Below, piece after piece: positions 16,517 to 40,175 of a stretch of DNA of 64,000 nt (the first letter of the stretch is position 1; every line of letters starts with the position of its first letter). The stretch is taken from NCBI GenBank assembly GCA_045644515.1, contig JAZRHA010000008.1, positions 305-64,304 on the forward strand, read 5' to 3'. The stretch is from Elusimicrobiaceae bacterium (GTDB lineage: Bacteria; Elusimicrobiota; Elusimicrobia; Elusimicrobiales; Elusimicrobiaceae). The translations under genes and the position numbers were made by a program. Below the pieces are notes generated by a model. The model made no database searches. It was not told the DNA's origin and worked only from the letters and a program-made list of their open reading frames with translations.

Positions 16517-16573
16517 TTTAATTCCTTATAAATTTATTTTACTTCTTTTAAAACCTTGCATTACTTCCTTTTG

Positions 16574-16693
16574 TTCCTCTCCCCTTTACTCGTAAAGGTG
16601 GAGAGGTTAGGGGTGGGGTTATTAAATTTGTATTCCTTATTTTTCAACCCCACCCCCTACCCCTCCACCTTTGTAAACAAAGGGGCGGGGAGT
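16574..16693. repeat. Composite REP-like palindrome: unit F1 (16574-16620), 25-nt spacer, inverted unit R1 (16646-16693)
   Basis: ttcctctcccctttactcgtaaaggtggagaggttaggggtggggtt ... aaccccaccccctacccctccacctttgtaaacaaaggggcggggagt. Each unit is a hairpin plus a GGGGTGGGG tail. The same units recur at 21711-21974, 22336-22449, 35830-35868 and 36602-36648. Confidence 0.9.
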
Positions 16694-16735
16694 ATAAGGA
16701 AATACTACTTCATTTTTTAAAAGAACAACTACCTT

Positions 16736-19700
16736 TTACGGTATTAAAATCTTTATCACTCTTTGTGATTTCTTTGCATTACCTCTCAAAGGATCTAAGG
16801 TCATGATGGCATAATACAATCCGCGTGCAACTCTCTTGCCTGCGTTGTTATTCTTATCCCATTTACACCTCATTGCAAAATTGCGCCCTAGTGCATGGCT
16901 GCCTAGCAAGTCTTGAGAAATTGTACCTCCAGCATTAAGTGGATTGCTATATCCGCCTGCATTCCAATCTGGTGAAACGCCACCATAGACAGTATTGAAG
17001 TCTTCCAATGTTGCCACAGTACCTATTGCATTGACGCATTTATAACCGCTATCCCTTACCAAGTCTCCGGCAATATTATATATCTTAATATTTACTGTTC
17101 CCGGGGCAGGTACTTTGGTTATTTCAAAGAAACCGTTATCTTCCCTTAATGGGTTCGGGTAGAACATTGTAACTTTTGGATCTTTCCAATCAATATCAGC
17201 ATACCAGCTATCACCGTTTACTACGTTGATTACGCTCATATTAATGTATTTATCCCAATCCATAACGACTTCTGATATTTCATCATACTGCCCGGAATAA
17301 TCGATATTTCCGTCGTCATCCTCTCCTGGCTCATCCAATACTGGGTCGCCGGTAATACTGTTCATCCTATAACTATCTAAAACCGTTACAAACCTAAACG
17401 GATATATACCATCCGGTACTTTTTGGCCGGCATAATCTGTACCGTCCCAGATTTCTTCCAAACTTACTAAGTTCGGGCGTACACCAACTATTGCTTTAAC
17501 CAAAACATCACGTGTATCTGTTGAATACACATTACCATAACCTTGTATCGGGTTCTCTAATTCACCGGTAGCTAAGTTTACTATCCTTGTACCAGGTTTA
17601 AAGATTTGGATTGCCGTCTTCATCGGTACTGAGATTTGATAGGCAAATTTCCCTTGGTTCTTGTTTTGGGTTGCAACATCCCAAATATATCTGTCAAATA
17701 CTTGGAAGTTGTTTACCACCAAATTCCTGTTTTCTACAGTTATATTCAAGCCCGGATCTGTTATACCGTCGCTTAAATATGGTTCTGCGGTAAATTTGAC
17801 TTGGTAATTTGCAGTCTTTACATAATTACCTTTTGCGTCTTTACCATCCCAGTACAATGTATTTAGAACATCAGCATCATATATATTATAGTCTACCAGT
17901 GAACTGTTAACAAAGTTTGTTCTTGTTAATGTTCGGCAGGTTACACCTTGAGCATTGTTGCCAAATTCATCATAACAGGCACCGGGTACTGTGCTGATAA
18001 TTTCTACAGTCACACTGCTTACACGGTTTACGCTAAATTCTACTTCATAAGGTGCAAGTTCAACTGTTGCGCTACTGTAATATTGGGTTGGATGTGTTGC
18101 CCTTATATTAATATCGGTAAAGTATACAGGCCCGCGGGATACTGTTATATATCCGGTTACTTTATCAGTTGCGATCATAGCATCTAATGGGTGCCACGGA
18201 CCGTTTAACGGATACACTACTGCGGTATCTGTGCTATAATATTGGGCACCCGGCACTGATGCGCTTGCTATTATAATGTAAGGATATAAACCATCGGGCA
18301 TCATTTCGGTTGCTGTTTGGTTTGCATCTACTTTATAGCCGTCCCAGTAATCTGTTATTGTATAGCCTTCACCTTGGCGTGTGCCTTTAAATTCTTTAAT
18401 TGGATTTATTGGATTAGTATATGCGGCATCATGTATACAACAATCCGGATCCGTTGCCCAAACACTACAATTTTGTGGTTCTTCCGCCGGCCAAGGGCAG
18501 TTAGGACCTGTCGGTATAATTACGCCCTTGTCATAAATTTTTACTGAAGCTTCCATACTCTTTGAAAGCATATAACTTATGCTTGCAAGGCCGCTTGAAG
18601 TATTGCTGCTGCCCAGTTCAAGTAAAGGTGTTGTGGTTACATCAACTATCCTAAACATATCAACAGGGAACTCTATTGTTCTTGTTACCATTTTGGCAGG
18701 GAACAAGGCATCTTTTGCAGTTATCCTTAACATATAGTTACCGGCACTTGCATATCGGCCATTATCGTCAAGACCATCCCAGTAATATGTATTTTTTGTT
18801 AAGGCTTCTTTTACTTCATTTTCTGAAATTGTTTTTACTTTATAAGGTGCACATTTATCCGGCAATGCACCTGAAGGATCACTCTCACAAACACCGGCTG
18901 TATATGTGTCACTTGATGCTATTGTATAAATACCGGCATCTACATAACTATCCCTGCTCAAACTATAGCTGATTACGAACGGATCCAAACCATTTGCTAT
19001 TGGGCTGCTACCGATTGTGGAATATGAAACTGCATCAATAGTTATTTCCGGGTAGCCCCTGTTTATCGGCATTATACCATTATATATCATATAGGTTTTA
19101 ACGCCGCTCCATTTAACATTATTTACATTTACTATATTATTTTCCGGGTCAAAATTGGCACCGCCGTTTGAACCCGAGGAACTGCCATAAGGTATTTCCG
19201 CCCAGAGCAAGTACACATAATCGCCGTCCGGCAATGCACCGCCGTAGGCATAACCTGTGTTAGTTGTACCGGACCCCGGCTTTCCCGGATCTGATCCGCA
19301 GTTTGTTTCATCCCAACACATACCGTCCCATTTGCTATTTACAAGTACCCTGCGTGCTTTTTGTTCGGTATAACTTGCCACTCTCAAACCTGTTGGGGTA
19401 ATAGCAGGTACATTTGTAGTACCTGAAGATGGATGTATAGCAGTTGCACAATCACCTGCGTTTATTACATTACATATATTTAAGTTACTAAATGTTGTAC
19501 CGGGGGTGAAAATTTCAAGGTGTACGGTTGCGGCCTCTGTCAACATATAATCTATTTTGGCATAGGCTGTTGATTCTTTACTTAAACCTGTCACCGCAAT
19601 ATCTGTGATTTTTAACGGGTCCAAACTTAATTGGCGTGTTACTGCACGGGATAAATCTAAATCATTCGGTCCGGTCCATTCATCACGGCTTGAGGCCTGT

Positions 19701-21547
19701 ATGCTTACCATATAATTACCGTAAGGTAATAATCTGCCTTGGTCATCACGCCCGTCCCAGCTGTCTTCATTTGTTATAACTAAATCGTTTTGCGCACCGC
19801 CCTGGAAGCCCTCGCCGTCACGCGGTTGACCAATTACCAAATGGCGGTGGATTTTAAAATAGTTGCCCCATTGTGATGATAATTCAGGGTCAATAATATC
19901 TATTGTAGTTGTAGCATCTTTACTTAATCTATACCTTATTCTATATGGTGCAGTTATCACTGCAGGTGTTGTACCAACTAATGTTGGGCTGCTGCGTACT
20001 GAATGCACATTTGTTACATCAACCTGCATCGGTATTTGTGTGTCACCGGGGTATGCTATCATGTGTTCAATATTTAAATCGCTTGTTACTGAAATACCGT
20101 CACCCGGGTAATTTGTTTTTATTGTTGTTCTAAAACCAAACTGGCCATTACTTTTACCAAATTCACCGTCTATTTCATAACTGCCGTCCCACGGTGTGCA
20201 GAAATGTAATTTTTTTAAACCTGCTCTACAAGCATTTTTAGAAGGAAAAGATTGAACAGAATTACAGTCATCCGGATGATTACAGTGAAAAGAACCAGTT
20301 GGAGGTATCCACTGGCAATAATTATTTGCAGTTCCTGATGTACAATCGCCTTCTAATAAACCTACACAAGGTGAAGGATCTAATGGGGAACAACTAACAG
20401 GATCAGGAGCACAAACATCACTATCACATTGTCCGGTAGCTAAGAAATTAGTAGCACAAATATTTGAATTTTTGTATCTACATCCAACACCTTCTACCCA
20501 CTCACAAATATCTCCATACATACCGGTGCAGTTTACCTCTAATGCACCTTCATCAGCACATCTGTCAACTTGAAGATTGCGGCATCCCGGTCTACGAGAG
20601 CAAACATCCGAATCACATTCCCCATTAGCTATAAAATTGGTACTGCAAATATTTGCATTTTTGTATCTACATCCACTATTTACCCACTCACAAACATGTC
20701 CATACATACCGGTACATATCTGTTGTGTTGTACCTTCCTCGGCACAACTATCTGTAGAATGATTCACACAAGCACCTATATGGTAATCACAGAACTGGGC
20801 ATTACAACTAGACACGTTTTGACAAGTATCTGGCTTAGCCGAACAATGACCGGTACCAGTTGGCCACGTACAATCTTCGCAACAAGATTTCTTTTCTTCA
20901 GGATAAATATTGCAATCTTCACCACTACAAAAGACTGGTACCCCTTTGCATATATTGTCTATATCAGAACCTTGTGCTGGGTACATTGCTATAGTTCTTA
21001 TCGGTGGGGTTGTATCAGGGTTATATGGGTTTGAACCGGCTTGATATTTAAAAATATCAAATAAAATTGTTTGGATAGGAAAGTCCCCACTTGCGATGGT
21101 ATTTATTACTGTCGCGGTACCACTGGAATTGGAACTTTCTGTTAGTCTTACAGGGTTTGAACAAGTGACTTCAGCACATAAAGTTAAACAATGGTTAGGA
21201 TAAGGTGCGGGTGTTGATTCATCAGGGTAAACCTTATCAAATTCAATTAATGCGGAATTTACCCAAGGATCTTCTGAAGCCTGATTATAACCATTTACAA
21301 ACCAATGGTTCGGATTTAAGAAAAATGAACGATTTCCGTACGATTTGGAATTCGGATAATTAGATGGATCTATTTTACATTGATAATTGGCAACTTGGTC
21401 TTGTGTACCAGGATAATAGACGAAATTATTTGTAACCATCGCTGTTTGGGAAAATAAATTTACCGCCCCAAAGATAATAAAACAAAGCACCCCTAAAATA
21501 GGAAATGCCCTAAAAAAAGAAATCCTATTAAATGTAATATTTTTCAT
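16736..21547 (-). CDS. Giant secreted Cys-rich protein with about 7 FlgD-Ig-like modules and a T9SS-type C-terminal domain; putative adhesin
   Basis: Signal peptide; Cys-rich tandem repeats (aa 262-381). Recurrent WDG[RKLT]D..G..[LV]P.G.Y motifs (WDGRDDQGRLLPYGNYMV, WDGLDDNGRYASAGNYML, WDGKDAKGNYVKTANYQV, WDGTDYAGQKVPDGIYPF). C-terminus FYPNPL...VNIKIYNIAGDLVR...ARGLYYAIMTL...RVIKILIP. The ORF-track start at 21553 is TTG. The ATG at 21547 has SD GAGGTG. Confidence 0.8.
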   Translation of the reverse strand: MKNITFNRISFFRAFPILGVLCFIIFGAVNLFSQTAMVTNNFVYYPGTQDQVANYQCKIDPSNYPNSKSYGNRSFFLNPNHWFVNGYNQASEDPWVNSALIEFDKVYPDESTPAPYPNHCLTLCAEVTCSNPVRLTESSNSSGTATVINTIASGDFPIQTILFDIFKYQAGSNPYNPDTTPPIRTIAMYPAQGSDIDNICKGVPVFCSGEDCNIYPEEKKSCCEDCTWPTGTGHCSAKPDTCQNVSSCNAQFCDYHIGACVNHSTDSCAEEGTTQQICTGMYGHVCEWVNSGCRYKNANICSTNFIANGECDSDVCSRRPGCRNLQVDRCADEGALEVNCTGMYGDICEWVEGVGCRYKNSNICATNFLATGQCDSDVCAPDPVSCSPLDPSPCVGLLEGDCTSGTANNYCQWIPPTGSFHCNHPDDCNSVQSFPSKNACRAGLKKLHFCTPWDGSYEIDGEFGKSNGQFGFRTTIKTNYPGDGISVTSDLNIEHMIAYPGDTQIPMQVDVTNVHSVRSSPTLVGTTPAVITAPYRIRYRLSKDATTTIDIIDPELSSQWGNYFKIHRHLVIGQPRDGEGFQGGAQNDLVITNEDSWDGRDDQGRLLPYGNYMVSIQASSRDEWTGPNDLDLSRAVTRQLSLDPLKITDIAVTGLSKESTAYAKIDYMLTEAATVHLEIFTPGTTFSNLNICNVINAGDCATAIHPSSGTTNVPAITPTGLRVASYTEQKARRVLVNSKWDGMCWDETNCGSDPGKPGSGTTNTGYAYGGALPDGDYVYLLWAEIPYGSSSGSNGGANFDPENNIVNVNNVKWSGVKTYMIYNGIMPINRGYPEITIDAVSYSTIGSSPIANGLDPFVISYSLSRDSYVDAGIYTIASSDTYTAGVCESDPSGALPDKCAPYKVKTISENEVKEALTKNTYYWDGLDDNGRYASAGNYMLRITAKDALFPAKMVTRTIEFPVDMFRIVDVTTTPLLELGSSNTSSGLASISYMLSKSMEASVKIYDKGVIIPTGPNCPWPAEEPQNCSVWATDPDCCIHDAAYTNPINPIKEFKGTRQGEGYTITDYWDGYKVDANQTATEMMPDGLYPYIIIASASVPGAQYYSTDTAVVYPLNGPWHPLDAMIATDKVTGYITVSRGPVYFTDINIRATHPTQYYSSATVELAPYEVEFSVNRVSSVTVEIISTVPGACYDEFGNNAQGVTCRTLTRTNFVNSSLVDYNIYDADVLNTLYWDGKDAKGNYVKTANYQVKFTAEPYLSDGITDPGLNITVENRNLVVNNFQVFDRYIWDVATQNKNQGKFAYQISVPMKTAIQIFKPGTRIVNLATGELENPIQGYGNVYSTDTRDVLVKAIVGVRPNLVSLEEIWDGTDYAGQKVPDGIYPFRFVTVLDSYRMNSITGDPVLDEPGEDDDGNIDYSGQYDEISEVVMDWDKYINMSVINVVNGDSWYADIDWKDPKVTMFYPNPLREDNGFFEITKVPAPGTVNIKIYNIAGDLVRDSGYKCVNAIGTVATLEDFNTVYGGVSPDWNAGGYSNPLNAGGTISQDLLGSHALGRNFAMRCKWDKNNNAGKRVARGLYYAIMTLDPLRGNAKKSQRVIKILIP

Positions 21548-21570
21548 AATCAAAAAAACACCTCAAATAT

Positions 21571-21599: not shown

Positions 21600-21710
21600 C
21601 AACTTTTTTAAATCCCCTATACACTCAAAACTTTTTCCCTTTTCCCTGCCCTTATTTTTTAATGTATGTAAGTCATAACCTGGGTTATTAAATAAAACTT
21701 TTTTCCTTTT

Positions 21711-21974
21711 TCTCTTCCCCCCTTTTTAAGGTGGGGAAGTTGGAAGCGGGGTTATTAAATTTGTTTCCTTTTATTCCTCTCCCCTTCCCAAGGTGGAGAG
21801 GTTAGGCGTGGGGTTGTCAAATCTGATTTCCTTTATTTTATAACCCCACCCCCTGCCCCTCCACCTTTCTAACGAAAGGGGCGGGGAGTACTTGAAATAT
21901 TTCCTAATTTAACAAAAATTTACTTCCTATTTTTCCTCTCCCCTTCCTAAGGTGGAGAGGTTAGGTGTGGGGTT
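21711..21974. repeat. Array of four REP-like units (21711-21753, 21774-21815, inverted 21842-21889, 21933-21974)
   Basis: Read directly from the sequence. Unit 21842-21889 is identical over 48 nt to 22402-22449. Unit 21933-21974 overlaps the 3' end of the DUF559 CDS. Confidence 0.9.
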
Positions 21975-22313
21975 GTCTGCAATAGCCTTATATATAACCG
22001 CTAAAACAGTTTGTAAATTAAGAAATATATCTCTGTTCCAAAAACGTAAAACCGTATAACCTTTACTTCTTAAAAATTCATCTCTTACTTTGTCTTTTTC
22101 CTTAGTATGTTGCCCGCCGTCACATTCTATTATCAATTTATTTTTTATTGCAACAAAATCTGCAATATACCTACCGATTTGATATTGCCTTCTAAAATGA
22201 ATTTGTGAAAATTTATCTCGTAAATGATACCATAAAAATCTTTCAGCTTCAGTAGAAGTATGCCTCATTGTTTTTGCTAAATTTTGTATATTTTTACTTC
22301 TCTTTTTAATCAT
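21927..22313 (-). CDS. DUF559 (Vsr-like, PD-(D/E)xK fold) endonuclease-domain protein
   Basis: ERFLWYHLRDKFSQIHFRRQYQIGRYIADFVAIKNKLIIECDGGQHTKEKDKVRDEFLRSKGYTVLRFWNRDIF is the classical DUF559 signature. The last 14 codons (NPTPNLSTLGRGEE) are read from a REP unit. Confidence 0.85.
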   Translation of the reverse strand: MIKKRSKNIQNLAKTMRHTSTEAERFLWYHLRDKFSQIHFRRQYQIGRYIADFVAIKNKLIIECDGGQHTKEKDKVRDEFLRSKGYTVLRFWNRDIFLNLQTVLAVIYKAIADNPTPNLSTLGRGEEK

Positions 22314-22335
22314 TTTTTAAATTTATTTCCTTAAA

Positions 22336-22449
22336 CTCTTCCCCCCTTTTTAAGGGGGGGAAGTTGGAAGCGGGTTTATTAAATTTGTTTCCTTATTTTT
22401 CAACCCCACCCCCTGCCCCTCCACCTTTCTAACGAAAGGGGCGGGGAGT
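22336..22449. repeat. Composite REP-like palindrome (variant unit 22336-22377, spacer, inverted unit 22402-22449)
   Basis: Near-identical direct copy of the outer parts of the 21711-21889 array, with the same attaaatttgtttcctt spacer. Confidence 0.9.
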
Positions 22450-22465
22450 GTAATGTATCACTTTT

Positions 22466-24040
22466 TTATTTTGTTTCCTTCTTTGCCTTATTAAGCCCCT
22501 TTTTGGCTGCTTTATTTTTGGGGTTAATTTTTAAAACGCTTTCATAATTTTTTATTGCATTTTCAAAATCTTTCAAAGCATAATTAACAGCTGCTTTATG
22601 CAAATAAATTTCTTCATCTTTTACTTCAGGGAAACTGCTTAAAATTTTATTTGCTTCCGCAAAATTCCCGGCCTTAAAATAATACCAAGCAAGTGAATCT
22701 TGATAGGCAATTTCACCCGGTTTCAAACTTAATGCTTTGGAAATTAATTTGTAGCCTTCTTCTAAATCTTTTTTGCTGCCTTTATCCACATAAAAATATC
22801 CAAGGAAATTTAAAGCCTGCGCATTATCCGGGTTTATGGTAAGAAGTTTTCTTAAAACTTCTTCCATCTTTTTATACTTTTTTTGCTCATAAAGCACCGC
22901 GGAATAATTGAAAAGTATAAGTTCGTTTTCCGGCACATTTTGCAAAATTTCTTCAAAAACTTTTGAGGCTTTATTATACTTTTTACCGTCTATCAAAGCC
23001 AAAGCATAATAATAAGAAATTTCATTATTGTCAGGGAATTTTTTATGCGCGCTTTCCATTAAATTTAAAAGTTCTTCTTGCTTCGAAAGCATGCTTAAAT
23101 AATAACCGGCTTTAATTTGCATGGCAGGAACTTCGTCAAAATCACGCGCTTTTTTGAGATAGTTTAAAGCGCTTTCATAACGCCCTTGGTTTTGTTCATA
23201 AACCGCAAAATAACGCGCTGCATATGGGTTTTTATCGTCTAAAATAAAAAGTTCTTCAAAATATTTTTTAGCATTATCCTCATCATTTTCCAACACTGCC
23301 AAAGCGCCCAACTTTTCAAGCATTTCTGTGTTTATAAAACCGTCTTTATGCATGGCTTGATAAGTGGAATAAAGTTTTTTTGTGTCCTTTTTTCGCTCGT
23401 AAATTTTAACTAGATTTAGGTAAATTTCTTCTTTATTTCTTACAGTTTTTAAAGATTTTTCCAACACATAAATTGCTTTGTCTTCCTCTTTATTTTTTAA
23501 GTAAATATCTGCAATTTTCAGTTTTATAAAACTTTCCGCTTGCGGGTATTCTTTTGCTAAGTTACTTAAGTAATTTATTGCAGCCTGTTGGTTTTTACTT
23601 GCCAAAATCCCGGCGTAGTGGAAGGATAAATCTAAATTTTCCGGGTTAAGTTTTAAGGCTTTTTTGTATTCGTTTAATGCTTGTGTTAAAGAGCCTTCAC
23701 GCAAATAATAATCACCCAAAAGGGTATGATCTTGCCAAGATTTCTCTTTTAAATTTTCATGCGCAGTTTTGCAAAAATTAAATTCCTCTTTTTTATTATC
23801 AAGCGCAAGGTAACAGTACTCATGTATTATGTGTTTATCTTCGGGGGTTTGGTCCAAAAGTTCTTTAAGAAGTGCAAGGGCCTCTTGTTTATTATTTTCC
23901 TTTTCAAACTTTAAGGCCTGCAAAAATTTATTATAAAAATCTGCCTGTTTTTGTGCATTCTCAGACAACTCAAAATTACCGTCAAATGCAAAAATTACGC
24001 CGGAAAGTAAACATAAAAAAATAGTAGTCTTTATCTTCAT
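22466..24040 (-). CDS. Secreted TPR-repeat protein
   Basis: Signal peptide and many TPR-like A/Y/L heptads (ALNEYKKALKLNPEN, AIKNYESVLKINPKN). Confidence 0.75.
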   Translation of the reverse strand: MKIKTTIFLCLLSGVIFAFDGNFELSENAQKQADFYNKFLQALKFEKENNKQEALALLKELLDQTPEDKHIIHEYCYLALDNKKEEFNFCKTAHENLKEKSWQDHTLLGDYYLREGSLTQALNEYKKALKLNPENLDLSFHYAGILASKNQQAAINYLSNLAKEYPQAESFIKLKIADIYLKNKEEDKAIYVLEKSLKTVRNKEEIYLNLVKIYERKKDTKKLYSTYQAMHKDGFINTEMLEKLGALAVLENDEDNAKKYFEELFILDDKNPYAARYFAVYEQNQGRYESALNYLKKARDFDEVPAMQIKAGYYLSMLSKQEELLNLMESAHKKFPDNNEISYYYALALIDGKKYNKASKVFEEILQNVPENELILFNYSAVLYEQKKYKKMEEVLRKLLTINPDNAQALNFLGYFYVDKGSKKDLEEGYKLISKALSLKPGEIAYQDSLAWYYFKAGNFAEANKILSSFPEVKDEEIYLHKAAVNYALKDFENAIKNYESVLKINPKNKAAKKGLNKAKKETK

Positions 24041-33345: not shown

Positions 33346-34389
33346 TTATTTCACCTTCGGCAAAAGTTCAAGCAATATAAAATAAACCAACATGCAAGCA
33401 ACACCTATCGGTAAAGCTTGTTTTGCCCACTCCTTACTTTTAATTTTAAATTTTGAAGCACAAATAATGTTGGGGATATTCCCCGGTATTAAGAAACCGC
33501 CTGAAATTATTAAACCCATAAGCAAAAATTCAATTTGGGTATTGCTCATTGTCGGTACAATTTCAGCGGCGGCAAGCGTTGCATTATCCAAGATTGCGGA
33601 AATTGAGTTTGCCCAGTATAAAGCCGCCAAAGGCAGTTTCATAATACTGATTTCAGCCAAAGGCGTAAGCCCGTGGCCGAAGAAAACCAAAGCCATAATA
33701 AACAAATATACTTTTGCGGCGCGGATTAAAATATCTTTTGAACTATCAATTTCAACATGTTGTTGGCTTTTAATCTGCTCATCTTTTGTGCGCCCTGCCA
33801 TATAAGCAAAAAATGCAACACCGGGAATAATCAAATACCAAAGCAAATGAAGCAAATAAAAGAAACCTGCATTGTGCGGTTCGCCGGAAAGTTTACTGAC
33901 AACTATTGTGGAAAGCGGTTCACCGATAGGCGTTAAAATTGCCCCAAGGCCTATCGCAAAACAGCCCATAACTATAACGTGTATCGTATCGCGCCTTGTT
34001 AAACGCAAAGTAGCGGCAATTTCGCAAAGTATTAAAGCGGCGACTATGGCTGTTATTACGCTTGAAAAAAGCCCCAAAACACCGACGAGTAAAATAATAG
34101 TTTTTTTAAGCCCGATTTTAAGTTCAATATGTTCAATAAGATGTGCTATATTTAATCTAAATCTTCTAAAGAGCAAGCCGATAATTAAAACCGCTAAAGA
34201 GATTTTTATAGGTTCTACAAGTGCCATACCCACCAACGGCCAGGACCAAGCCCCTATAGCAGTAACAGCAATAATACCCAGGACAAATAAAAAAGATTCC
34301 AATTGCTGTTCTACGGCGTGGACCGTAAAAGGCAAAAAGAGCGCCAGCAAAATTACTAAGGTTAAAATTATTATTACGAGCGTACTCAT
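33346..34389 (-). CDS. Polytopic membrane protein, putative cation transporter (DUF1646-like)
   Basis: About 10 TM helices, 347 aa, translationally coupled to mgtC. The family assignment is from memory only. Confidence 0.4.
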   Translation of the reverse strand: MSTLVIIILTLVILLALFLPFTVHAVEQQLESFLFVLGIIAVTAIGAWSWPLVGMALVEPIKISLAVLIIGLLFRRFRLNIAHLIEHIELKIGLKKTIILLVGVLGLFSSVITAIVAALILCEIAATLRLTRRDTIHVIVMGCFAIGLGAILTPIGEPLSTIVVSKLSGEPHNAGFFYLLHLLWYLIIPGVAFFAYMAGRTKDEQIKSQQHVEIDSSKDILIRAAKVYLFIMALVFFGHGLTPLAEISIMKLPLAALYWANSISAILDNATLAAAEIVPTMSNTQIEFLLMGLIISGGFLIPGNIPNIICASKFKIKSKEWAKQALPIGVACMLVYFILLELLPKVK

Positions 34390-34427
34390 AAAACTCCCCT
34401 TTTTATATTATACTAAAAAACTACTAT

Positions 34428-34622
34428 CATGACGAACTATATTAATTAGTGTGCATGTTCTTGCAAATTTAAGTGCTTTTTAATTTTTCAACTCCTAGAG
34501 TACCGAGATGTCGCTTCGCTCCACGTTCTTCTTGGTACTCGTCGTCGTAGTAAAAATCAAAAATCATCTTAAATTTGCTGCGTCGCACAAAATGCACTCG
34601 TACGCTTTGGTTCTAAACTCTA
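34428..34622 (-). repeat. Long-palindrome element, copy A (minus orientation; palindrome 34463-34578)
   Basis: Its reverse complement aligns along its length with copy C (39961-40160). Arms are gcaaatttaag/cttaaatttgc. Core is gagtacc-N27-ggtactc. Confidence 0.85.
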
Positions 34623-34683
34623 GAGTTTTTATGAACTTTCCTGAAAAATAAAAGTAGAAATAAAAGCCTTATTATAAAAATTT

Positions 34684-34712
34684 AACCCCCGTTCAATTTT
34701 TAAACGGGGGTT
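34684..34712 (-). terminator. Intrinsic terminator hairpin downstream of the 34734-35678 gene
   Basis: 10-bp stem aacccccgtt/aaacgggggtt with a 9-nt loop, flanked by T/A runs on both strands. Confidence 0.6.
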
Positions 34713-34733
34713 TTGTGTTCTTAAAATACTCTT

Positions 34734-35678
34734 TTATTTTGCTTCCGTTCTTAAACGTTCGGCAAAATTGTGAATATAATCTGCCCTTTCTTCGGTAGTT
34801 AAATTTTGCCAATATCTTGTTTGGGTATAAAGGCGTGCCGACATATTTTCAACATTTGGGTTTTTGGAAGTATAGTATTCAATATCCACAGCATCATATA
34901 AGATTTGCGCGCAATCTTTGCTCTTGTGATAAAATAATTCAAAATCGCTCACACCTTTTTTATCAAAAGAAATAAGTGTTTGGAAAGGACTGTCAAGAAA
35001 CTTATTTTTTGTTTCATAAGGTGTTAAATTGGGACTAAAATAAGGTACGGAAGGGTTTGTAAATAATAAAAATGCTAGCAAGACTGCTACCCCAACCCCT
35101 AAACTTGCATATAAAACGCCCTTTCCAGTATATCCAGAAAGTAATAGGCAAAACATTGTCATGCTCCCTATAAACATGGAACCCACAGCAGAACCCGCAT
35201 AATAACCAAATTTCTCGTCTTTATATGTGTTTTCCGCGTTTATGCCCTCTTGTATTTGATCAAATAAAACCGTATAAAAAGCATCGCGCAACATTTCTTC
35301 TTTGGTTTTATTACCATAATATTCAGGATCTTCGTTTATTCTCTTTACTGCTTCTTCTTTTAAGAAATTTACATAATCTTCACGTTCTTTTAGAAAGGTT
35401 TCATTTTTTTCAAATTCTTCCAAATTCTTTTGATTATTTTCAACGGAAAGTTGATAGCGTTTCTTTATAACCTCAATATCCGGTATACCTTCATAAAGAG
35501 GTTTTTTAGGCTTGATAATTTCTGACATTGAAATAGATGCGGCAATTTCTTTTTTAAGTTCATTTAATTGTGCTACATCTAAATCAGCAACAACATCTGC
35601 TGCCTGCAAAACAGGGGTAGTAGTAAATAGTATAATTACTGCCATTGTTAAACTGATTATTTTGTTTAGTATTTTCAT
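34734..35678 (-). CDS. Hypothetical secreted/membrane protein (signal peptide, coiled-coil-like region, 2 TM helices)
   Basis: 314-aa ORF with SD AAGGAGA. I recognise no family. Flanked by repeat elements on both sides. Confidence 0.6.
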   Translation of the reverse strand: MKILNKIISLTMAVIILFTTTPVLQAADVVADLDVAQLNELKKEIAASISMSEIIKPKKPLYEGIPDIEVIKKRYQLSVENNQKNLEEFEKNETFLKEREDYVNFLKEEAVKRINEDPEYYGNKTKEEMLRDAFYTVLFDQIQEGINAENTYKDEKFGYYAGSAVGSMFIGSMTMFCLLLSGYTGKGVLYASLGVGVAVLLAFLLFTNPSVPYFSPNLTPYETKNKFLDSPFQTLISFDKKGVSDFELFYHKSKDCAQILYDAVDIEYYTSKNPNVENMSARLYTQTRYWQNLTTEERADYIHNFAERLRTEAK

Positions 35679-35782
35679 AAATTCTCCTTGCGATATTTTA
35701 TATTATATATATTTTTAAAAAACAACAAAAGGGCCATTAGGCCTATTAAAAAGTACCCCAAAAACCTATTTAAAGGCCAAAC

Positions 35783-35868
35783 CATGTACCCAAACCCGGC
35801 AAGTATTTTTGAGGAAATTTTAGTTTTATAACCCCACCCCTTTACCCCTCAAACAAAGGGGCGGGGAA
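35783..35868. repeat. Arm module (35783-35826) plus truncated REP-like unit (35830-35868)
   Basis: ggccaaaccatgtacccaaacccggcaagtatttttgaggaaatttt recurs at 36673-36722 and 41878-41930. It is followed by aaccccacccctttacccctcaaacaaaggggcggggaa. Confidence 0.8.
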
Positions 35869-35889
35869 TATAAGGAAATAATTTTAAAG

Positions 35890-36070
35890 TTCAAAACCGT
35901 AGCGTGCGAGAATGGTTTCGCATCGCGTAGCAAATTTAAGATGATTTTTTATTTTCTCCTTGACGACGAATACCCAGAAGTATAGGAGCGTAGCGATTTT
36001 CGGTATTCTAGGAAAGGGAAAATAAAAAAGGGCTTAAATTTGCAAGCGCGTTATATGCGTTTGTGGACAT
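35890..36070 (+). repeat. Long-palindrome element, copy B (palindrome 35930-36043; core hairpin 35968-36008)
   Basis: gcaaatttaag-atgattttttattttctcc-ttgacgac-gaatacc-N27-ggtattc-tagg-aaagggaaaataaaaaag-gg-cttaaatttgc. Confidence 0.85.
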
Positions 36071-36109
36071 AATGCGGGGACACGACACGTCAAAACAAAT
36101 TCCCTATTT

Positions 36110-36118
36110 TGCTATAAT
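36110..36118 (+). promoter_or_regulatory. Extended -10 promoter of smpB (leaderless configuration)
   Basis: TGcTATAAT, then 6 nt (atatat), then ATG at 36125. There is no room for an SD. Confidence 0.55.
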
Positions 36119-36124
36119 ATATAT

Positions 36125-36595
36125 ATGAGTAGAAAAAAAGGTATAGAAGTAATCGCTACCAATCGCCAAGCCATGCACGAATATTTTATTTTAGATACTT
36201 TTGAGGCAGGCCTTGTCTTGCTTGGAGCGGAAATTAAATCAATACGCAACAAAGAATGTTCTTTGAGGGCGGCCTTCGTGCGTGTAGCTGACGGGGAAGC
36301 ACAAATACTTAATTTAAATATTAAGCCTTATGCTTTTAACACTCATACAGCATTAGATCCTACCAGAACACGCAAATTGCTTTTAAACCGCCGGGAAATA
36401 AACAAACTTGCAGCCGCAAGTGAAGTTAAGGGGCAAACAATAGTTCCGCTTGAACTTTATATCAAAGACGGTTGGGCAAAAGTTAAAATTGCTTTGGCAA
36501 AAGGTAAACACTTGTACGACAAACGCAAAACATTAAAAGATAAAGCCGTTGCACGTGATATGGAACGCAATTTCAAAAATAAATTTAAGTTGTAA
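36125..36595 (+). CDS. smpB: SsrA(tmRNA)-binding protein SmpB
   Basis: IATNRQAMHEYFILDTFEAGLVLLGAEIKS... and C-terminal basic tail; typical SmpB. Confidence 0.95.
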   Translation: MSRKKGIEVIATNRQAMHEYFILDTFEAGLVLLGAEIKSIRNKECSLRAAFVRVADGEAQILNLNIKPYAFNTHTALDPTRTRKLLLNRREINKLAAASEVKGQTIVPLELYIKDGWAKVKIALAKGKHLYDKRKTLKDKAVARDMERNFKNKFKL

Positions 36596-36601
36596 ATGTA
36601 T

Positions 36602-36648
36602 AACCCCACCCCTAACCCCTCCACCTTTGCAAGCAAAGGGGAGAGGAA
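36602..36648. repeat. REP-like unit 6 nt downstream of the smpB stop
   Basis: aaccccacccctaacccctccacctttgcaagcaaaggggagaggaa; same family as 16646-16693. Confidence 0.85.
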
Positions 36649-36672
36649 TTACAGGAAGTATTTTTTATTAAA

Positions 36673-36822
36673 GCCAACCTGTGCATATAACCCCGGCAAG
36701 TATTTTTGAGGAAATTTTGATTTTTTCTGCGACGACTAGTACCGCGAAGTATAGGAGCGTAAGCGACGTATCGGTACTTTAGGAGCTGAAAAATCAAAAT
36801 TTACCAAAAAGAATTAGCCGGC
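36673..36822 (+). repeat. Long-palindrome element, copy D (palindrome 36712-36802, alternative arms)
   Basis: Perfect 14-bp arms aaattttgattttt/aaaaatcaaaattt around the core tagtacc-N-ggtactt. The core loop gaagtataggagcgtaagcga is conserved with copies B and E. Confidence 0.85.
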
Positions 36823-36910
36823 ACAAAATGTAAATTGCAAATTTCCTATCTTGAACAATAATAAGTTGTAATTTGATATACTATATATATACATCAATCA
36901 AGGGGATTTT

Positions 36911-39460
36911 ATGAAAATTCATTCATTTAAAGTTACACCGGATTTGCCGGATAATATGAAATTTTTGGAAGAACTTTCCAACAATATGTGGTTTGCGTGG
37001 AATTGGGACGCAATCAATTTATTTGTCAAAATAGACGAAAAACTTTGGGAACAAAGTTTACGTATGCCAAAATGGCTTATGGCAACGGTTTCACAAAAAC
37101 GCTTGGAAGAACTTAGCAAAGATAAAGATTTCATTGCACAACTTAATTATGTAGAATCTCTTTACAGAAATTACCAAAAAGAACAAAATACTTGGTTCAA
37201 TAAAATTAAAGGCCAAGGGAAAGACAACTTTTTAACGGCATACTTTTCAATGGAATACGGTATCGGCGAAGGTTTACCTATTTATTCCGGCGGTCTTGGT
37301 ATGCTTTCAGGCGACCATATTAAAAGTTCAAGCGACCTCGGGTTACCTTTAATCGGTGTAGGTTTGTTTTATCAAAAAGGTTATGTAAAACAAGTTTTAA
37401 ATAAAGACGGCTGGCAAGGCGAACAATACCCGGAAAATGACTGGGCACACATGTCCGTTGAACCTATATTAAAAGCAGATGGTAATCATTTGACTGTAGA
37501 TATTCCACTCGGCCGCGAAACAATTAAAGCAATGATTTGGCGCGTGCCTGTCGGCCGCACTTCCTTATTTTTACTTGATACTAATTTACCGGAAAACCCA
37601 CCCCAACATAGAACTATTACCGAACAACTTTACGGCGGTGATAGGGAAAACAGAATTAAGCAGGAAATTGTCCTCGGCGTAGGTGGTGTAAAAGCATTAA
37701 AAGCACTAGGTTTAAAACCGACAGTTTACCATATTAATGAAGGGCACTCCGCATTTTTGCTTTGCGAACGCATTATTGAAATTATGCAAGAACGCAAAAT
37801 TTCCTTTGACGAAGCACGTGAAATTGTTTGGGCAACTTCAGTTTTTACCACTCACACACCTGTTATTGCAGGTAATGAACATTTTGATTTTAATTTGGTC
37901 AAAAAATTTATGGAACCTTATGTAATGCAACTCGGCATCGGCTGGGACAGATTTTTAGATTACGGTAAAGAAACACCGGAATCCCCCATGTTTTGCATGA
38001 CTGTTTTTGCTTTAAAACTTTCCGCTTACTTAAACGGTGTTGCAAAATTGCACGGTAAAGTTTCCCGCGAAATGTGGCATAAAGTTTGGCCTAATTTAAA
38101 TGTAAACGAAGTGCCGATAACAAGCATAACAAACGGTGTACACTCGGCAAGTTGGGTAAGCCATGAACATAATGATTTATACAAAAAATATTTGGGTAAT
38201 ACTACAAACCCGTTAGATAATTTTGACCAAAATGTTTGGAATAAAGCATATGATATTCCTGCCGATGAACTTTGGAATACACATAATATACGTAAAGACA
38301 AACTCATTAAACATATCCGCGCAAAAGCAGTGCGCCAAGCACACCGCATGGCAGCAAGTTTGCAAACAGTAAAGATTGCGGAAAATGTTTTGGAAGAAGG
38401 TGTTTTGACTATCGGTTTTGCACGCCGTTTTGCCACTTATAAACGTGCGACATTGCTTTTTAAAGATCCTGAAAGATTAGCAAAAATCGTTAATAATCCA
38501 AACAGACCGGTTCAGTTTGTTTTCGCCGGTAAAGCACACCCGGCAGACAGTGCAGGTAAAGAATTTATCAAAAAAATATTTACCTATATGCTTGACCCTA
38601 GATTTAAAGGTAAAATCGTTTTTGCCGAAGATTATAACATGAACCTTGCCCGTTATATGGTTCAAGGTGTTGATGTTTGGTTAAATAACCCGATTAGGCC
38701 TATGGAAGCATCCGGCACAAGCGGTATGAAAGCCGCTTTAAACGGTGCTTTGGCCTTATCAATCCTTGACGGATGGTGGGATGAAGTCGGCCCATGTGAT
38801 TTCAGTTGGTCAATCACCGGTTCTGATACTTATAAAGACGATAATGAACGCGATGAAGTGGAAAGCCAAGCACTTTATAACTTGCTTGAACAGGAAGTTA
38901 TCCCGACATATTATGATAGAGATGCCGACGGCTTACCGCAAAAATGGATCAAAAAGATGAAAGATTCCATTTCAAAAATAGTACCTTTCTTTAATACACA
39001 CCGCATGGTGCAAGAATATTATGATAAATTCTACACCAAAGCCCATTATTACGGAAGTATGTTAAACACCACAGGCCGCACCGCAGAAGTTGCCGCATGG
39101 CGCAAAAAAATTGCAGACAACTGGCCGCAAGTATCAATTACAGATACAACAGGCCAAATTGACGGTGAAGTATTAGTCGGCCAAAAGATAAAAATTAAGG
39201 CTGATGTTACTTTAGGTTCTTTAAAACCGCAAGATGTTGTGGTACAACTACAAGTCGGTACACGCGGTATGGGCGGTGCTTTTGAAAGTTCAAAAGATAT
39301 GGCAATGAATTTTGTAAAACAGGAAAACGGCATATATAAATATGAACTTGAATTAAAGCTTGAAACAAGCGGTCGTCAAGATTATGTTTTAAGAATTTTG
39401 CCTTTCAACGCAAATGTACCCCATCCGTTTACTCCGCTTTTTGTACGTTGGGAAATTTAG
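36911..39460 (+). CDS. glgP: Alpha-glucan (glycogen/maltodextrin) phosphorylase, GT35, archaeal/Thermotoga-type
   Basis: 849 aa. YFSMEYGI...GGLGMLSGDH, EASGTSGMKAALNG (PLP-Lys region). SD AAGGGGA. Confidence 0.9.
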   Translation: MKIHSFKVTPDLPDNMKFLEELSNNMWFAWNWDAINLFVKIDEKLWEQSLRMPKWLMATVSQKRLEELSKDKDFIAQLNYVESLYRNYQKEQNTWFNKIKGQGKDNFLTAYFSMEYGIGEGLPIYSGGLGMLSGDHIKSSSDLGLPLIGVGLFYQKGYVKQVLNKDGWQGEQYPENDWAHMSVEPILKADGNHLTVDIPLGRETIKAMIWRVPVGRTSLFLLDTNLPENPPQHRTITEQLYGGDRENRIKQEIVLGVGGVKALKALGLKPTVYHINEGHSAFLLCERIIEIMQERKISFDEAREIVWATSVFTTHTPVIAGNEHFDFNLVKKFMEPYVMQLGIGWDRFLDYGKETPESPMFCMTVFALKLSAYLNGVAKLHGKVSREMWHKVWPNLNVNEVPITSITNGVHSASWVSHEHNDLYKKYLGNTTNPLDNFDQNVWNKAYDIPADELWNTHNIRKDKLIKHIRAKAVRQAHRMAASLQTVKIAENVLEEGVLTIGFARRFATYKRATLLFKDPERLAKIVNNPNRPVQFVFAGKAHPADSAGKEFIKKIFTYMLDPRFKGKIVFAEDYNMNLARYMVQGVDVWLNNPIRPMEASGTSGMKAALNGALALSILDGWWDEVGPCDFSWSITGSDTYKDDNERDEVESQALYNLLEQEVIPTYYDRDADGLPQKWIKKMKDSISKIVPFFNTHRMVQEYYDKFYTKAHYYGSMLNTTGRTAEVAAWRKKIADNWPQVSITDTTGQIDGEVLVGQKIKIKADVTLGSLKPQDVVVQLQVGTRGMGGAFESSKDMAMNFVKQENGIYKYELELKLETSGRQDYVLRILPFNANVPHPFTPLFVRWEI

Positions 39461-39931: not shown

Positions 39932-39960
39932 TCAATAAAAATAAAGTAAAATATTTGTAA

Positions 39961-40160
39961 GTGCACGGGATTTTAAAACCAAAGCGTATGGGAATGATTT
40001 TGTGCGACGCAGCAAATTTAAGATGATTTTTTATTTTTCTTTGACGACGTGTACCAAGAAGTAAAACGAACGGAGTGAGTTTGCGGTACTCTAGAAAAAG
40101 AAAAATAAAAAAGGGTTTAAATTTGCAAGAACATGCACACTATTTAACGTAATTCGTCAT
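39961..40160 (+). repeat. Long-palindrome element, copy C (palindrome 40012-40126)
   Basis: Closest relative of copy A, in the opposite orientation. Core gtgtacc-N-ggtactc. Confidence 0.85.
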
Positions 40161-40175
40161 AACGAATAAAACATT

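Follow-up and report, generated by a model that had tools for sequence, protein, structure and literature searches.

A DUF559 nuclease gene bounded by BoxC/PIT/TM repeat units resembles a compact mobile element in diverse bacterial phyla

The repeat units that bracket the lone DUF559 gene of the window (the whole 64-kb stretch of Elusimicrobiaceae DNA under analysis) belong to the known BoxC / PIT / intrastrand-triplex-motif (TM) repeat family, of which they form an AT-rich version, and are not classical REPs. The arrangement of gene and units looks like a compact mobile element, which recurs in ∼20 phyla. On balance, the locus is probably a TM-ended selfish DUF559 cassette, whose homing-like spread would be driven by its own nuclease.

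The features of the window are collected in Table 1. All of the coordinates and sequence statements given for 21711-22449 in the preliminary description were reproduced, and the ORF of its lone 128-aa DUF559 gene is intact. Six units within 740 bp were also recounted, while the total of 11 was not upheld: a profile made from the units and run over the whole 64 kb gave nine significant matches (E≤2e-9; next match, E=0.08), including the six at DUF559, two at 16573-16694 and one at 36601-36650. The clustering of the units around the gene far exceeds chance. The gene is located between those of a TPR protein and a 1605-aa surface protein (the giant gene), and the inserted block lies between the TPR stop codon and a conserved promoter-like site (TTGACA-17-GAAAAT) ahead of the giant gene. 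Units C and F are identical (48 nt), units A and E differ at two positions, and the spacer ATTAAATTTGTTTCCTT is found 3' of both A and E. Unit D, read on the minus strand, corresponds to NPTPNLSTLGRGEEK plus the stop codon and supplies the last 14 codons of DUF559, as had been claimed for the C-terminus. An E-F-type doublet ahead of the ATG was also observed in two other loci (L001 and L104). The DUF559 nuclease is the sole ORF of the element, and DDE, HUH and serine/tyrosine transposases are absent from it; similarly, a scan of 20 mid-size ORFs of the window detected no RAYT, Y1 or other transposase, consistent with the lack of a RAYT noted earlier. Searches of Rfam at gathering and permissive thresholds revealed no family for the units, only chance miRNA-like hairpin matches.

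Table 1. Position of the DUF559 gene, repeat units, insertions and related sites in the window
Feature	Position	Strand	Description
DUF559 ORF, 128 aa	21927..22313	minus	Vsr-like PD-(D/E)xK nuclease; Pfam PF04480, E=1.2e-34
DUF559 domain layout	residues 1-113 and 114-128		1-113 folded; 114-128 disordered tail from unit D
Unit A	21712-21755	+	downstream composite
Unit B	21775-21816	+	downstream composite
Unit C	21841-21889	-	downstream composite
Unit D	21933-21975	+	3' terminal unit of DUF559 gene
Unit E	22336-22378	+	variant unit, 10-bp stem; upstream of DUF559 gene
Unit F	22402-22449	-	type B-like, CAG linker; oriented as canonical 5' terminal unit
A-B-C composite 3' of gene	21712..21889		near-duplicate of E-F doublet plus inserted unit B
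E-F inverted doublet 5' of gene			23-nt spacer at 22379-22401
Ribosome-binding site AAGGAA of DUF559 gene	within 22314-22335
Whole inserted block, 849 bp	21611..22459	-	six units, DUF559 and degenerate tail
Left 9-bp direct repeat TAAAAAAGT	22460..22468	-	contains TPR stop codon; bounds inserted block
Right 9-bp direct repeat TAAAAAAGT	21602..21610	-	followed by TTGACA-17-GAAAAT site
Gene-less inverted doublet	16573..16694	+	type A unit, 25-nt spacer, type B unit; separate intergenic spacer
267-bp insertion directly 3' of smpB stop codon	36596..36862		solo unit plus second, unrelated repeat
Solo unit in smpB insertion	36601-36650	minus
Direct repeat AAGTTGTAA bounding smpB insertion	36587-36595 and 36863-36871
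SpoU-methylase to MFS-transporter spacer	39932..40175	+	empty: no unit, no DUF559

The units had been described as REPs, a designation which did not survive: their three-block structure, linkers and doublets are those of the BoxC/PIT/TM family. In a TM unit, a pyrimidine block is followed, across a short loop, by the purine block that complements it, and a third, G-rich block mirrors the purine one; the units often occur as inverted doublets of types A and B, for which the pairing rule was given by Holder et al. 2015 (PMC4666352). The hairpin of pyrimidine and complementary purine blocks is present in all nine window units. In terms of the third block, a mirror copy fitted better than a direct copy in 77 of 136 informative units, worse in 16 and equally well in 43; the mirror match of the window's own units is moderate (∼7/10 in a hand alignment of unit B). 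The window units share with the E. coli repeats (TMECO) the same three blocks, the linkers (TTA in type A, CNG in type B) and the intergenic, inverted A+B doublets. The doublet at 16573..16694 is built like the TMECO pairs, and both it and the composites at 21.7-22.4 kb are collinear with the E. coli doublet 164,547-164,631, although in the AT-adapted window version the loops are longer and the spacer measures 25 nt (versus 16 nt).

BoxC was recognized in the 1990s as a palindromic repeat of E. coli and in 2000 the Maher group rediscovered it under the name PIT element (cited in PMC4666352). No function has been reported for TM repeats, and explicitly no mobility gene has been linked to them (PMC4666352); in contrast, the units of the window bracket a nuclease gene. 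The intrastrand triplex was observed in vitro, with E. coli oligonucleotides only, and not in vivo, while in vitro the units can block polymerases, and they mark loci that are unstable (PMC4666352). BoxC/PIT/TM repeats occur in >260 genomes.

The association of gene and units was analyzed further in 80 DUF559 loci from ∼20 phyla, ranked by a query that includes the unit-encoded tail. The suspected association was borne out: unit density is ∼60-fold higher at the DUF559 ends (160 units in 27.6 kb versus 83 in 917 kb), which amounts to 5.5-6.1 units per kb at the gene ends and 0.09 per kb at distances of more than 1 kb. The orientation of the units is biased both upstream (58:16) and downstream (62:24), and 46 of 77 loci carry units at both gene ends. 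A 3' unit placed and oriented like unit D was detected in 56 of 78 loci from other phyla, a figure which, unlike that for the 5' unit, may be inflated by the tail in the query. Deinococcus is among the lineages in which the unit orientation is reversed, and this counts against the cassette reading. Since a MAFFT alignment of the gene-anchored 3' regions was too gappy for RNAalifold to give a consensus, a gene-anchored, alignment-free stem test was used, which is independent of the unit detector. Perfect stems of ≥7 bp were found at the 3' end of 54 of the 78 loci, compared with 2.6% of shuffles, and 34 different stem arms were represented.

The canonical architecture in the other loci is a single inverted unit pair abutting the ORF and is simpler than that of the window, with its upstream doublet and three-unit downstream composite. 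The start codon lies 0-15 nt past the 5' unit in at least 33 of 56 loci, and the homologues of other phyla finish in P-x-P-[SL]-P-x-x-G-[ER]-G-E, so that the repeat-derived tail suggested earlier extends beyond this genome. The median identity between the 5' unit and the reverse complement of the 3' unit is 0.79, reaching up to 1.00 (L029, L026, L003 and L014). The 5' and 3' units of the same element exceed units from different genomes in likeness by only a modest margin (0.79 versus 0.72), another point against the cassette reading. Of the three convergent far unit pairs that span 200-2000 bp, two enclose further DUF559 domains, and one far inverted pair (L071) encloses a response-regulator ORF. 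In a unit-centred sample, 42 of 44 loci were without DUF559, and many of them were doublets with uniform spacers, a distribution which fits few autonomous and many non-autonomous copies. In E. coli, ycjD has a decayed unit at its end and is followed, 168 bp downstream, by TMECO no. 9; the pair is a relic of the gene-unit arrangement. E. coli strains that lack ycjD retain TM units, which again counts against a cassette.

The proposal that the DUF559 gene is a small mobile cassette received direct support from filled and empty orthologous sites. The TPR-to-giant spacer is 912 bp long here and 56 and 61 bp in two close relatives (L092 and L095, respectively), both of which are empty; TAAAAAAGT occurs as a single copy at the L095 site. 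In L088-L091 the spacer measures 398 bp, with units present and the gene absent. Conversely, the SpoU-MFS site, empty here, carries a canonical unit-DUF559-unit cassette in L086 and L087, between flanking genes that share 83-86% nucleotide identity. In L084 and L085, the cassette is directly 3' of SpoU, with another downstream neighbour (N_methyl). In L084 and L086, which carry the gene together with its flanking units and not without them, the smpB insertion site is empty. Direct repeats of 9-10 bp were found at both ends of two insertions (two junction pairs), whereas the L084 junction shows instead a ∼38-nt duplication from the 3' end of the neighbouring gene. All three of the insertion sites encountered are at the stop codon of a gene.

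Homologues of 65-80% identity occupy at least four genomic contexts. Between contexts, the divergence of the copies equals or exceeds that of the host genes (pS 0.45-0.7), which weighs against the preferred reading. Such saturated synonymous divergence indicates that movement is old or proceeded via horizontal transfer, and a recent transposition burst is thereby rejected. A plasmid or phage vehicle was likewise rejected, relatives being present in no more than three phage records and 45 plasmid records, most of the latter from megaplasmids or chromids. In-frame insertions were detected in hsdS of four phyla (L020, L040, L064 and L079) and in prmA of two organisms (L006 and L068), in each gene at one and the same conserved position; further in-frame insertions are in trmD, recO, aroE and priA. 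DUF559 is enriched among predicted inversion targets, with an odds ratio of 14 (PMC9881135). Programmed inversion was rejected as an explanation, as this enrichment is probably due to the cassettes in hsdS and their inverted units, and it is thus not counted as independent support.

A Pfam search with the 128-aa protein yielded DUF559/MTES_1575 only. Its PDB profile matches were 3HRL (E=4.5e-38) and 3R3P (E=0.004), and the AlphaFold2 model (pLDDT 84.9, below 50-68 in the tail) gave Foldseek TM-scores, normalised by target length, of 0.87 for 3hrl and 0.79 for 3r3p, with a 1vsr match at E=0.055. The nuclease is most similar to NGO0050 and to the homing endonuclease I-Bth0305I, the latter being its closest characterised structural relative. 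I-Bth0305I is the prototype of the EDxHD (Vsr-like) homing endonucleases (PMC3239194; PMC2677866), whose family features include an N-terminal NUMOD/HTH DNA-binding region and residence in an intron or intein (PMC3239194). The modelled protein has two short N-terminal helices beside the catalytic domain and a disordered tail, and neither a NUMOD/HTH DNA-binding region nor an intron or intein was detected in the protein or locus (Pfam and model). The catalytic residues, on which the preliminary description had made its proposal depend, are retained: none of D52, E63, D65, H69 and D74 varies among 32 homologues, and dN/dS values of 0.08-0.26 signify purifying selection. These acidic and histidine residues and the dN/dS values mark the protein as functional. 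The closest homologue among GTDB representatives (74% identical) is from an Elusimicrobiaceae MAG, while the best matches elsewhere are distributed among many unrelated phyla at similar identity (∼45-53%). The DUF559 family comprises >20,000 clusters at 50% identity. No C5-cytosine methyltransferase adjoins the gene here, and the other contexts are SpoU/MFS and similar; a Vsr-Dcm repair reading was rejected on this absence of a methyltransferase neighbour.

According to the cassette reading, the element would consist of a ∼115-codon DUF559 gene with inverted BoxC/TM copies at both ends, in total ∼420 bp, with hardly any DNA of its own besides the nuclease domain. In the canonical form, the G-rich third block of the 5' unit, which stops 0-15 nt before the start codon, serves as the Shine-Dalgarno sequence, and the 3' unit is read through to give the disordered P-x-P-S-P-x-x-G-E-G-E tail up to the stop codon. 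Since the units lack stop codons, the cassette can reside in frame within host genes; the window copy appears to have gone in at the TPR stop codon. The solo units and inverted doublets (25-27-nt spacers), seen here and in hundreds of genomes, are MITE-like or REPIN-like and would represent gene-less relatives of the cassette. The candidate nuclease may recognise the TM unit or the doublet, perhaps in a folded, single-stranded form, and nick or cleave there, after which repair or replication would copy the cassette or doublet into the cut, such that the units would act both as target and as homology arms. This homing-like spread would be the PD-(D/E)xK counterpart of REP-RAYT. The putative recognition of the hairpins by the nuclease, as also envisaged in the preliminary description, fits the evidence. 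As PD-(D/E)xK/Vsr nucleases nick or cut DNA and carry out no strand transfer, the nuclease alone does not explain the 9-10-bp junction repeats, which counts against the proposed mechanism. In its most far-reaching form, put forward here tentatively as a possibility and not as the expected outcome, DUF559 would be the missing BoxC/PIT/TM enzyme, which recognises the folded single-stranded unit and drives the copying of both the cassette and the gene-less doublets. It would then constitute a second, mechanistically independent REP-RAYT-like replicator, spread horizontally over most bacterial phyla and resident in frame in essential genes (trmD, recO, prmA and priA) without an intein or intron.

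The recurrence of one insertion position in hsdS and prmA of distant taxa, together with a fold nearest to that of I-Bth0305I, would also be expected of a classical homing-endonuclease gene with structured ends, which cuts cassette-free targets (such as the hsdS and prmA positions or gene 3' ends) and not TM units. The units would then be packaging only: they would provide the Shine-Dalgarno sequence and a stop-free read-through that permits in-frame residence, form hairpins in RNA or DNA by which a toxic gene is stabilised or silenced, and offer homology to the repair machinery, while the dispersed TM units would be decay products or would have spread by another route. The derivation of the Shine-Dalgarno sequence from the 5' unit and the lack of a unit in the empty SpoU-MFS site of the window agree with this alternative, which we nevertheless regard as unlikely: the protein comprises a catalytic domain and two helices without the NUMOD-like module (cf. 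PMC3239194), and the intergenic insertion sites have no obvious common target sequence. It also leaves unexplained the conservation, from E. coli to Elusimicrobia, of both the unit sequence and its three-block geometry, as well as the uniform spacer of the gene-less doublets.

A host-beneficial, non-mobile nuclease, which processes or repairs TM structures (e.g., at stalled forks) or acts in mismatch repair, is a good deal less probable. Its flanking TM units would autoregulate the gene, and the apparent mobility would reflect differential loss of old paralogues. Strong purifying selection and the age of the copies are in keeping with such a role, as are the polymerase-blocking TM units at unstable loci (PMC4666352) and the Caulobacter DUF559 protein VsrA, a proposed VSP-repair enzyme (PMC12907096). 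However, the gene here adjoins no cytosine methyltransferase, close relatives lack it in the same spacer and carry it at another site, the cassette interrupts genes in frame, direct repeats mark the junctions, and the best protein matches are scattered over unrelated phyla. Finally, a coincidence, whereby TM repeats pile up by any horizontally acquired small gene, might account for the many unit-centred loci not beside DUF559 and for the far pair around the response-regulator ORF, but is extremely improbable and already effectively refuted by the enrichment, the fixed register and orientation across ∼20 phyla and the stem test; the far pairs around further DUF559 domains and the building of units into the translation signals of the gene also speak against it.

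The association had been thought undescribed, and full-text literature searches indeed gave no paper that joins the BoxC/PIT/TM repeat to a DUF559 nuclease; searches for the tail peptide (GEGLGVR and similar) returned nothing relevant. DUF559 is the first candidate enzyme for these repeats. If the cassette reading is true, two orphans, TM repeats without a function and DUF559 without an assigned role, would explain each other, and a PD-(D/E)xK counterpart would be added to the HUH-based REP-RAYT paradigm, in the form of a minimal selfish element of ∼420 bp able to sit in frame in conserved genes. A repeat-built nuclease gene is a testable candidate for the origin of the repeats and for TM loci as rearrangement hot spots. 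The cassette would also account for the odd PxPSPxxGEG tails and N-terminal extensions of which there are thousands among annotated proteins, and it flags chimeric "fusion" ORFs (HsdS-DUF559 and PrmA-DUF559) as insertions.

Among known systems, the REP/REPIN-RAYT elements are similar in that a nuclease-type gene lies between inverted, short, structured repeats, which are also dispersed as solo units and inverted doublets. In contrast to the RAYT, an HUH/Y1 (IS200/IS605-like) transposase, the enzyme here is a Vsr-like PD-(D/E)xK protein; TM sequences are conserved across phyla, whereas REPs are species-specific, and the TM units overlap the translation signals of the gene, in a cassette that also enters genes in frame. 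The EDxHD homing endonucleases (I-Bth0305I) share the catalytic fold, the conserved E/D/H/D residues and a selfish lifestyle with repeated insertion at one conserved host-gene position, but the element described here has no NUMOD/HTH, intron or intein, is bounded by TM units, and many of its copies are intergenic. MITEs and small insertion sequences resemble it in their ∼40-nt inverted terminal units, abundant gene-less doublets and the 9-10-bp direct repeats at two filled/empty junctions, a likeness drawn from too few junctions to define a fixed duplication length. They differ from it in that the present element has no DDE or other transposase and that its terminal repeats, which have an internal structure, fall into two types (A and B).

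The Rickettsia palindromic elements (RPE) are selfish repeats that reside in frame in protein genes and carry no gene. Like them, the TM units are stop-free palindromic repeats translated within host proteins; in the present case, however, the repeats flank a nuclease domain, which is itself translated inside the host protein. The Vsr very-short-patch repair endonuclease has a distantly related fold (1vsr). Unlike Vsr, the DUF559 protein has no partner cytosine methyltransferase, is much nearer to NGO0050 and I-Bth0305I, and behaves in genomes like a mobile cassette.

The DUF559 gene stands alone amid six repeat units (A to F), and the layout given in the preliminary description was borne out. 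Units C and F are the same at 48 of 48 nt, units A and E differ at two positions, and the spacer ATTAAATTTGTTTCCTT follows A and E alike. Read on the minus strand, unit D encodes the C-terminal residues NPTPNLSTLGRGEEK and the stop codon of the DUF559 protein. In keeping with that description, neither RAYT nor any other transposase was detected among the 20 mid-size window ORFs scanned. The count of 11 units was too high, since a profile made from the units gave exactly nine significant copies in the 64 kb: the six around DUF559, an inverted doublet and a solo unit. None of the window units matched an Rfam family.

Coordinates of the DUF559 gene, repeat units and insertions (window positions, unless a locus from another genome is named)
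Feature	Position	Strand	Remarks
DUF559 ORF	21927..22313	minus	128 aa; Pfam DUF559 E=1.2e-34
Unit A	21712-21755	+	
Unit B	21775-21816	+	
Unit C	21841-21889	-	
Unit D	21933-21975	+	
Unit E	22336-22378	+	
Unit F	22402-22449	-	
Inverted doublet	16573-16694		outside DUF559 region
Solo unit	36601-36650		
Inserted block	21611-22459		849 bp, bounded by direct repeat TAAAAAAGT
Direct repeat TAAAAAAGT, two copies	22460-22468 and 21602-21610		single copy in empty sites
hsdS insertions	L020 8858-11188; L040 8810-11065; L064 2623-4171; L079 4821-7070		
prmA insertions	L006 3-1337; L068 9242-10675		

The naming of these units as REPs also requires revision. Each comprises a pyrimidine block (CCTCTCCCC), a short loop, a complementary purine block (GGTGGAGAGG), a linker of 2-3 nt and a second G-rich block (GGCGTGGGG), an architecture published as BoxC, then as the PIT element and then as the intrastrand triplex motif, TM or TMECO, whose consensus in E. 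coli is CCCTCGCCCCTYTGGGGAGAGGGTTAGGGTGAGGGG (Holder et al. 2015, PMC4666352). Of 136 informative units drawn from many phyla, 77 had a third block that mirrors the second, 16 had a direct copy and 43 were ties; the mirror form is the purine-motif triplex geometry of PMC4666352. Aligned with the E. coli doublet at 164,547-164,631, the window doublets are collinear, and in both a unit with a TTA linker (type A) is paired with one carrying a C-N-G linker (type B). Because of the three-block layout, the mirror geometry and the collinear doublet with shared linker types, the window units are an AT-adapted member of this known, very widespread TM family, rather than classical REPs. The motif was recorded in more than 260 genomes without a function being found, and transposases, integrases or other mobility activities were never found near it (Holder et al. 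2015, PMC4666352), a paper in which endonuclease, Vsr and ycjD go unmentioned.

The co-localisation of gene and units extends far beyond this genome. In a scan of one genome per species, at least 594 relatives of the window protein were found, the best 80 of which span about 20 phyla. In 1.10 Mb around these best 80 loci, a simple three-block detector located 74 units in the 150 nt upstream of DUF559, a figure that the ranking cannot have affected, and 86 at its 3' end, a figure that may be inflated, as the ranking query contained the unit-encoded tail. Beyond 1 kb from the genes, only 83 units were scattered over 917 kb. The densities are thus 5.5 (upstream) and 6.1 (3' end) versus 0.09 per kb, a roughly 60-fold enrichment, and 160 units adjoin the genes where the background rate predicts about 2.5. 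The units keep a fixed orientation: those upstream run pyrimidine-purine-purine toward the gene in 58 cases versus 16, downstream units were the inverse of the upstream orientation in 62 versus 24, and 46 of 77 loci had units on both sides. Typically, one unit ends about 20 nt ahead of the protein match, while the other begins about 35 nt before the match end. In a detector-independent test of the 84 nt beginning 18 codons past the conserved FWN motif, a perfect stem of at least 7 bp was present at 54 of 78 loci (versus 2.6% of shuffles); 34 distinct stem arms were observed, and pairing has therefore been kept while the sequence changed.

Unit-derived tails were likewise observed in other phyla. 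Homologues from Betaproteobacteria, Gallionellaceae, Elusimicrobiota and others end in P-x-P-[SL]-P-x-x-G-[ER]-G-E, and the peptides at the start of their over-extended ORF calls, for example PSPRKRGEGLGERG, are translated from units. The arrangement is present in Pseudanabaena with a lineage-specific unit (CCCCCCAGAATTGGGGGGCTAGGGGGG), in Deinococcus in reversed orientation, and partly around N. gonorrhoeae NGO0050 (the protein of PDB 3HRL). Loci without a detected unit were mostly of the in-frame class, whose variant units carry an extra hairpin in the second linker. The 5' and 3' units of one element share an identity of 0.79, only modestly in excess of the 0.72 between genomes.

The canonical element measures about 40 + 5 + 340 + 40 nt. 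In 33 or more of 56 loci, the start codon follows the 5' unit by 0-15 nt, which places the unit's third block (GGGGAGAGGG) at the expected Shine-Dalgarno position; the 3' unit is translated as the DUF559 tail. An AlphaFold2 model of the window protein (mean pLDDT 84.9) shows the domain spanning residues 1-113, followed by a disordered tail. In the window copy, an inverted doublet (F, spacer, E) ahead of the ribosome-binding site replaces the single unit, and a near-duplicate of the F-E doublet, with unit B inserted, lies downstream. The upstream doublet also occurs in L001, the closest species-level relative of the window copy, and the simple form in L084 and L086, which contain closer homologues than L001.

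The whole gene-plus-TM element is present or absent between close relatives, at differing sites. The TPR and giant genes, which flank the window cassette, adjoin in close relatives (TPR identity 74-80%). Their spacer measures 56 bp in L092 and 61 bp in L095, where the cassette is absent and the TPR stop codon is followed directly by conserved promoter-like sequence; 398 bp in L088-L091, with four units and no gene; and 912 bp in the window, with six units and DUF559. In two other pairs of relatives (L084/L085 and L086/L087), homologues sharing 80% and 65% identity with the window protein directly follow a SpoU-methylase gene, the latter cassette lying between SpoU and MFS-transporter genes. 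The window SpoU-MFS spacer (39932-40175) contains neither unit nor DUF559, and its flanking genes share 83-86% nucleotide identity. Two further homologues (79% and 74% identical) occupy other contexts again. Downstream of smpB, the solo unit lies in a 267-bp insertion with AAGTTGTAA at both ends (36587-36595, 36863-36871); this insertion is missing in L084 and L086. A duplicated stretch of about 38 nt from the SpoU 3' end flanks the L084 cassette. Each of the three insertion sites lies where the upstream gene ends, at its stop codon or 3' end.

Other features of these regions were also recorded. The giant protein (16736-21553; 1605 aa) is Cys-rich with a TTG start, and its orthologues in relatives faintly match FlgD_ig/CHU_C. 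The conserved promoter-like site of its gene, TTGACA-17-GAAAAT (21599-21571), lies directly after the right-hand direct repeat of the insertion, which therefore did not part gene and site. The smpB-glgP-SpoU-DUF559 block has different neighbours on both sides in L084 (1-6700) and L086 (1-7700), the MFS/Fe-repressor/dnaB genes being inverted to its other side; a rearrangement breakpoint therefore coincides with the cassette. Besides the TM units, a second and unrelated repeat family is present, with the core gacgac.gt.tacc..gaagta....cg.a.g.ga....cggtact and its own A/T-rich inverted repeat on the flanks; one copy (36700-36790) lies within the smpB insertion and one (40020-40110) in the SpoU-MFS spacer, and no Rfam family matched it at the gathering threshold. 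GC skew changes sign at about 34000-37000, which may be a replication-origin region: the cumulative minimum lies near 36 kb, gene orientation switches from minus to plus exactly there, and dnaB is at 42096-43493.

The cassette is also able to interrupt genes in frame. Outside this lineage, it was found within hsdS, past the conserved WF[VI]DFDPV, in four phyla (Nitrospira, Binatia, Actinomycetota and Pseudohongiellaceae; L020, L040, L064, L079), within prmA at one shared profile position in two organisms (L006, L068), and within a peptidase M14 gene (L047). The 33 long proteins among the top 150 representatives include 19 HsdS, two RecO and two GHMP kinases; TrmD, AroE, PriA, an Eco57I-type methylase and a biotin-lipoyl protein are each represented once. 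Insertions of this kind probably account for many proteins annotated as "fusions".

Many gene-less units accompany the cassette. In a metagenome scan with the Elusimicrobial unit pattern, DUF559 was found at only two of 44 loci (154 kb), so that most units are gene-less, as expected of non-autonomous copies; two is nevertheless far above chance for a roughly single-copy gene of about 400 bp. Inverted doublets were frequent among the 44, with a spacer of conserved sequence and uniform length (25-27 nt). The ycjD region of E. coli K-12 (L081, 1,348,500-1,352,500) preserves a relic of the arrangement: the DUF559 protein YcjD ends in ..RRSPSP* within a decayed unit, a fragment duplicating the ycjD 3' end follows, and TMECO no. 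9 (1,351,204-1,351,239; Holder's Table 1, PMC4666352) lies 168 bp past the stop. A sapF-ycjD-fabI query had no match covering at least 80% in 2,080 of 5,426 complete E. coli genomes (~38%). In the one such genome inspected (L098), the eefRABC efflux operon replaces the ycjD-plus-TM segment between sapF and fabI; TM units persist in strains with this replacement.

The catalytic residues have been retained, D52, E63, D65, H69 and D74 being invariant across 32 homologues. Six Elusimicrobial copies from at least four contexts have dN/dS of 0.08-0.26 and synonymous sites near saturation; the nuclease is therefore kept by selection and its copies are old. The family is very large, counting 20,619 clusters (50% identity) at E<=1e-3 and 6,305 at E<=1e-10, with few plasmid or phage relatives. 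By profile, the nearest solved structure is 3HRL (NGO0050; E=4.5e-38), followed by 3R3P (E=0.004), which represents the homing endonuclease I-Bth0305I by its catalytic domain. A NUMOD/HTH region is present in I-Bth0305I but not in the window protein. Fold comparison gave TM-scores, normalised to target length, of 0.87 (3hrl) and 0.79 (3r3p), with Vsr only marginal. Among the Foldseek neighbours of the model are several mitoribosomal proteins from Toxoplasma and Tetrahymena, so the Vsr-like fold is also found in organellar RNA-binding proteins. Human FASTK, of a Vsr-like-fold family, reportedly prefers G-rich single strands (title of PMC12871924), which is no more than a lead for the choice of substrate.

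A conserved, selected nuclease gene is thus physically part of an inverted pair of TM units, and we favour, with some confidence, a mobile-cassette model. The nuclease would recognise the TM unit or doublet, perhaps in a folded single-stranded form, and would cut there, after which repair or replication would copy the cassette or doublet. That DUF559 is the enzyme generating TM repeats is put forward more tentatively. The model leaves unexplained the E. coli TM units without ycjD and the modest likeness of 5' and 3' units, and a Vsr-type nuclease alone does not account for the 9-10-bp junction repeats. The main rival, which we consider rather unlikely, is a classical homing endonuclease aimed at host sequences, with the units serving merely as structured, stop-free ends. 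A non-mobile nuclease of benefit to the host fits poorly and is improbable; plain coincidence of gene and units, equally ill-fitting, is barely credible. DUF559 and the TM repeat are each known, while their link and the resulting element appear undescribed: no publication tying them together was found in the full-text literature, whose subscription coverage is incomplete, so that an earlier description is possible. Under the mobile-cassette model, the homing-like process would be a PD-(D/E)xK analogue of REP-RAYT, and the nearest known kinds to the TM-DUF559 element are repeat-plus-nuclease replicators and homing-endonuclease cassettes.
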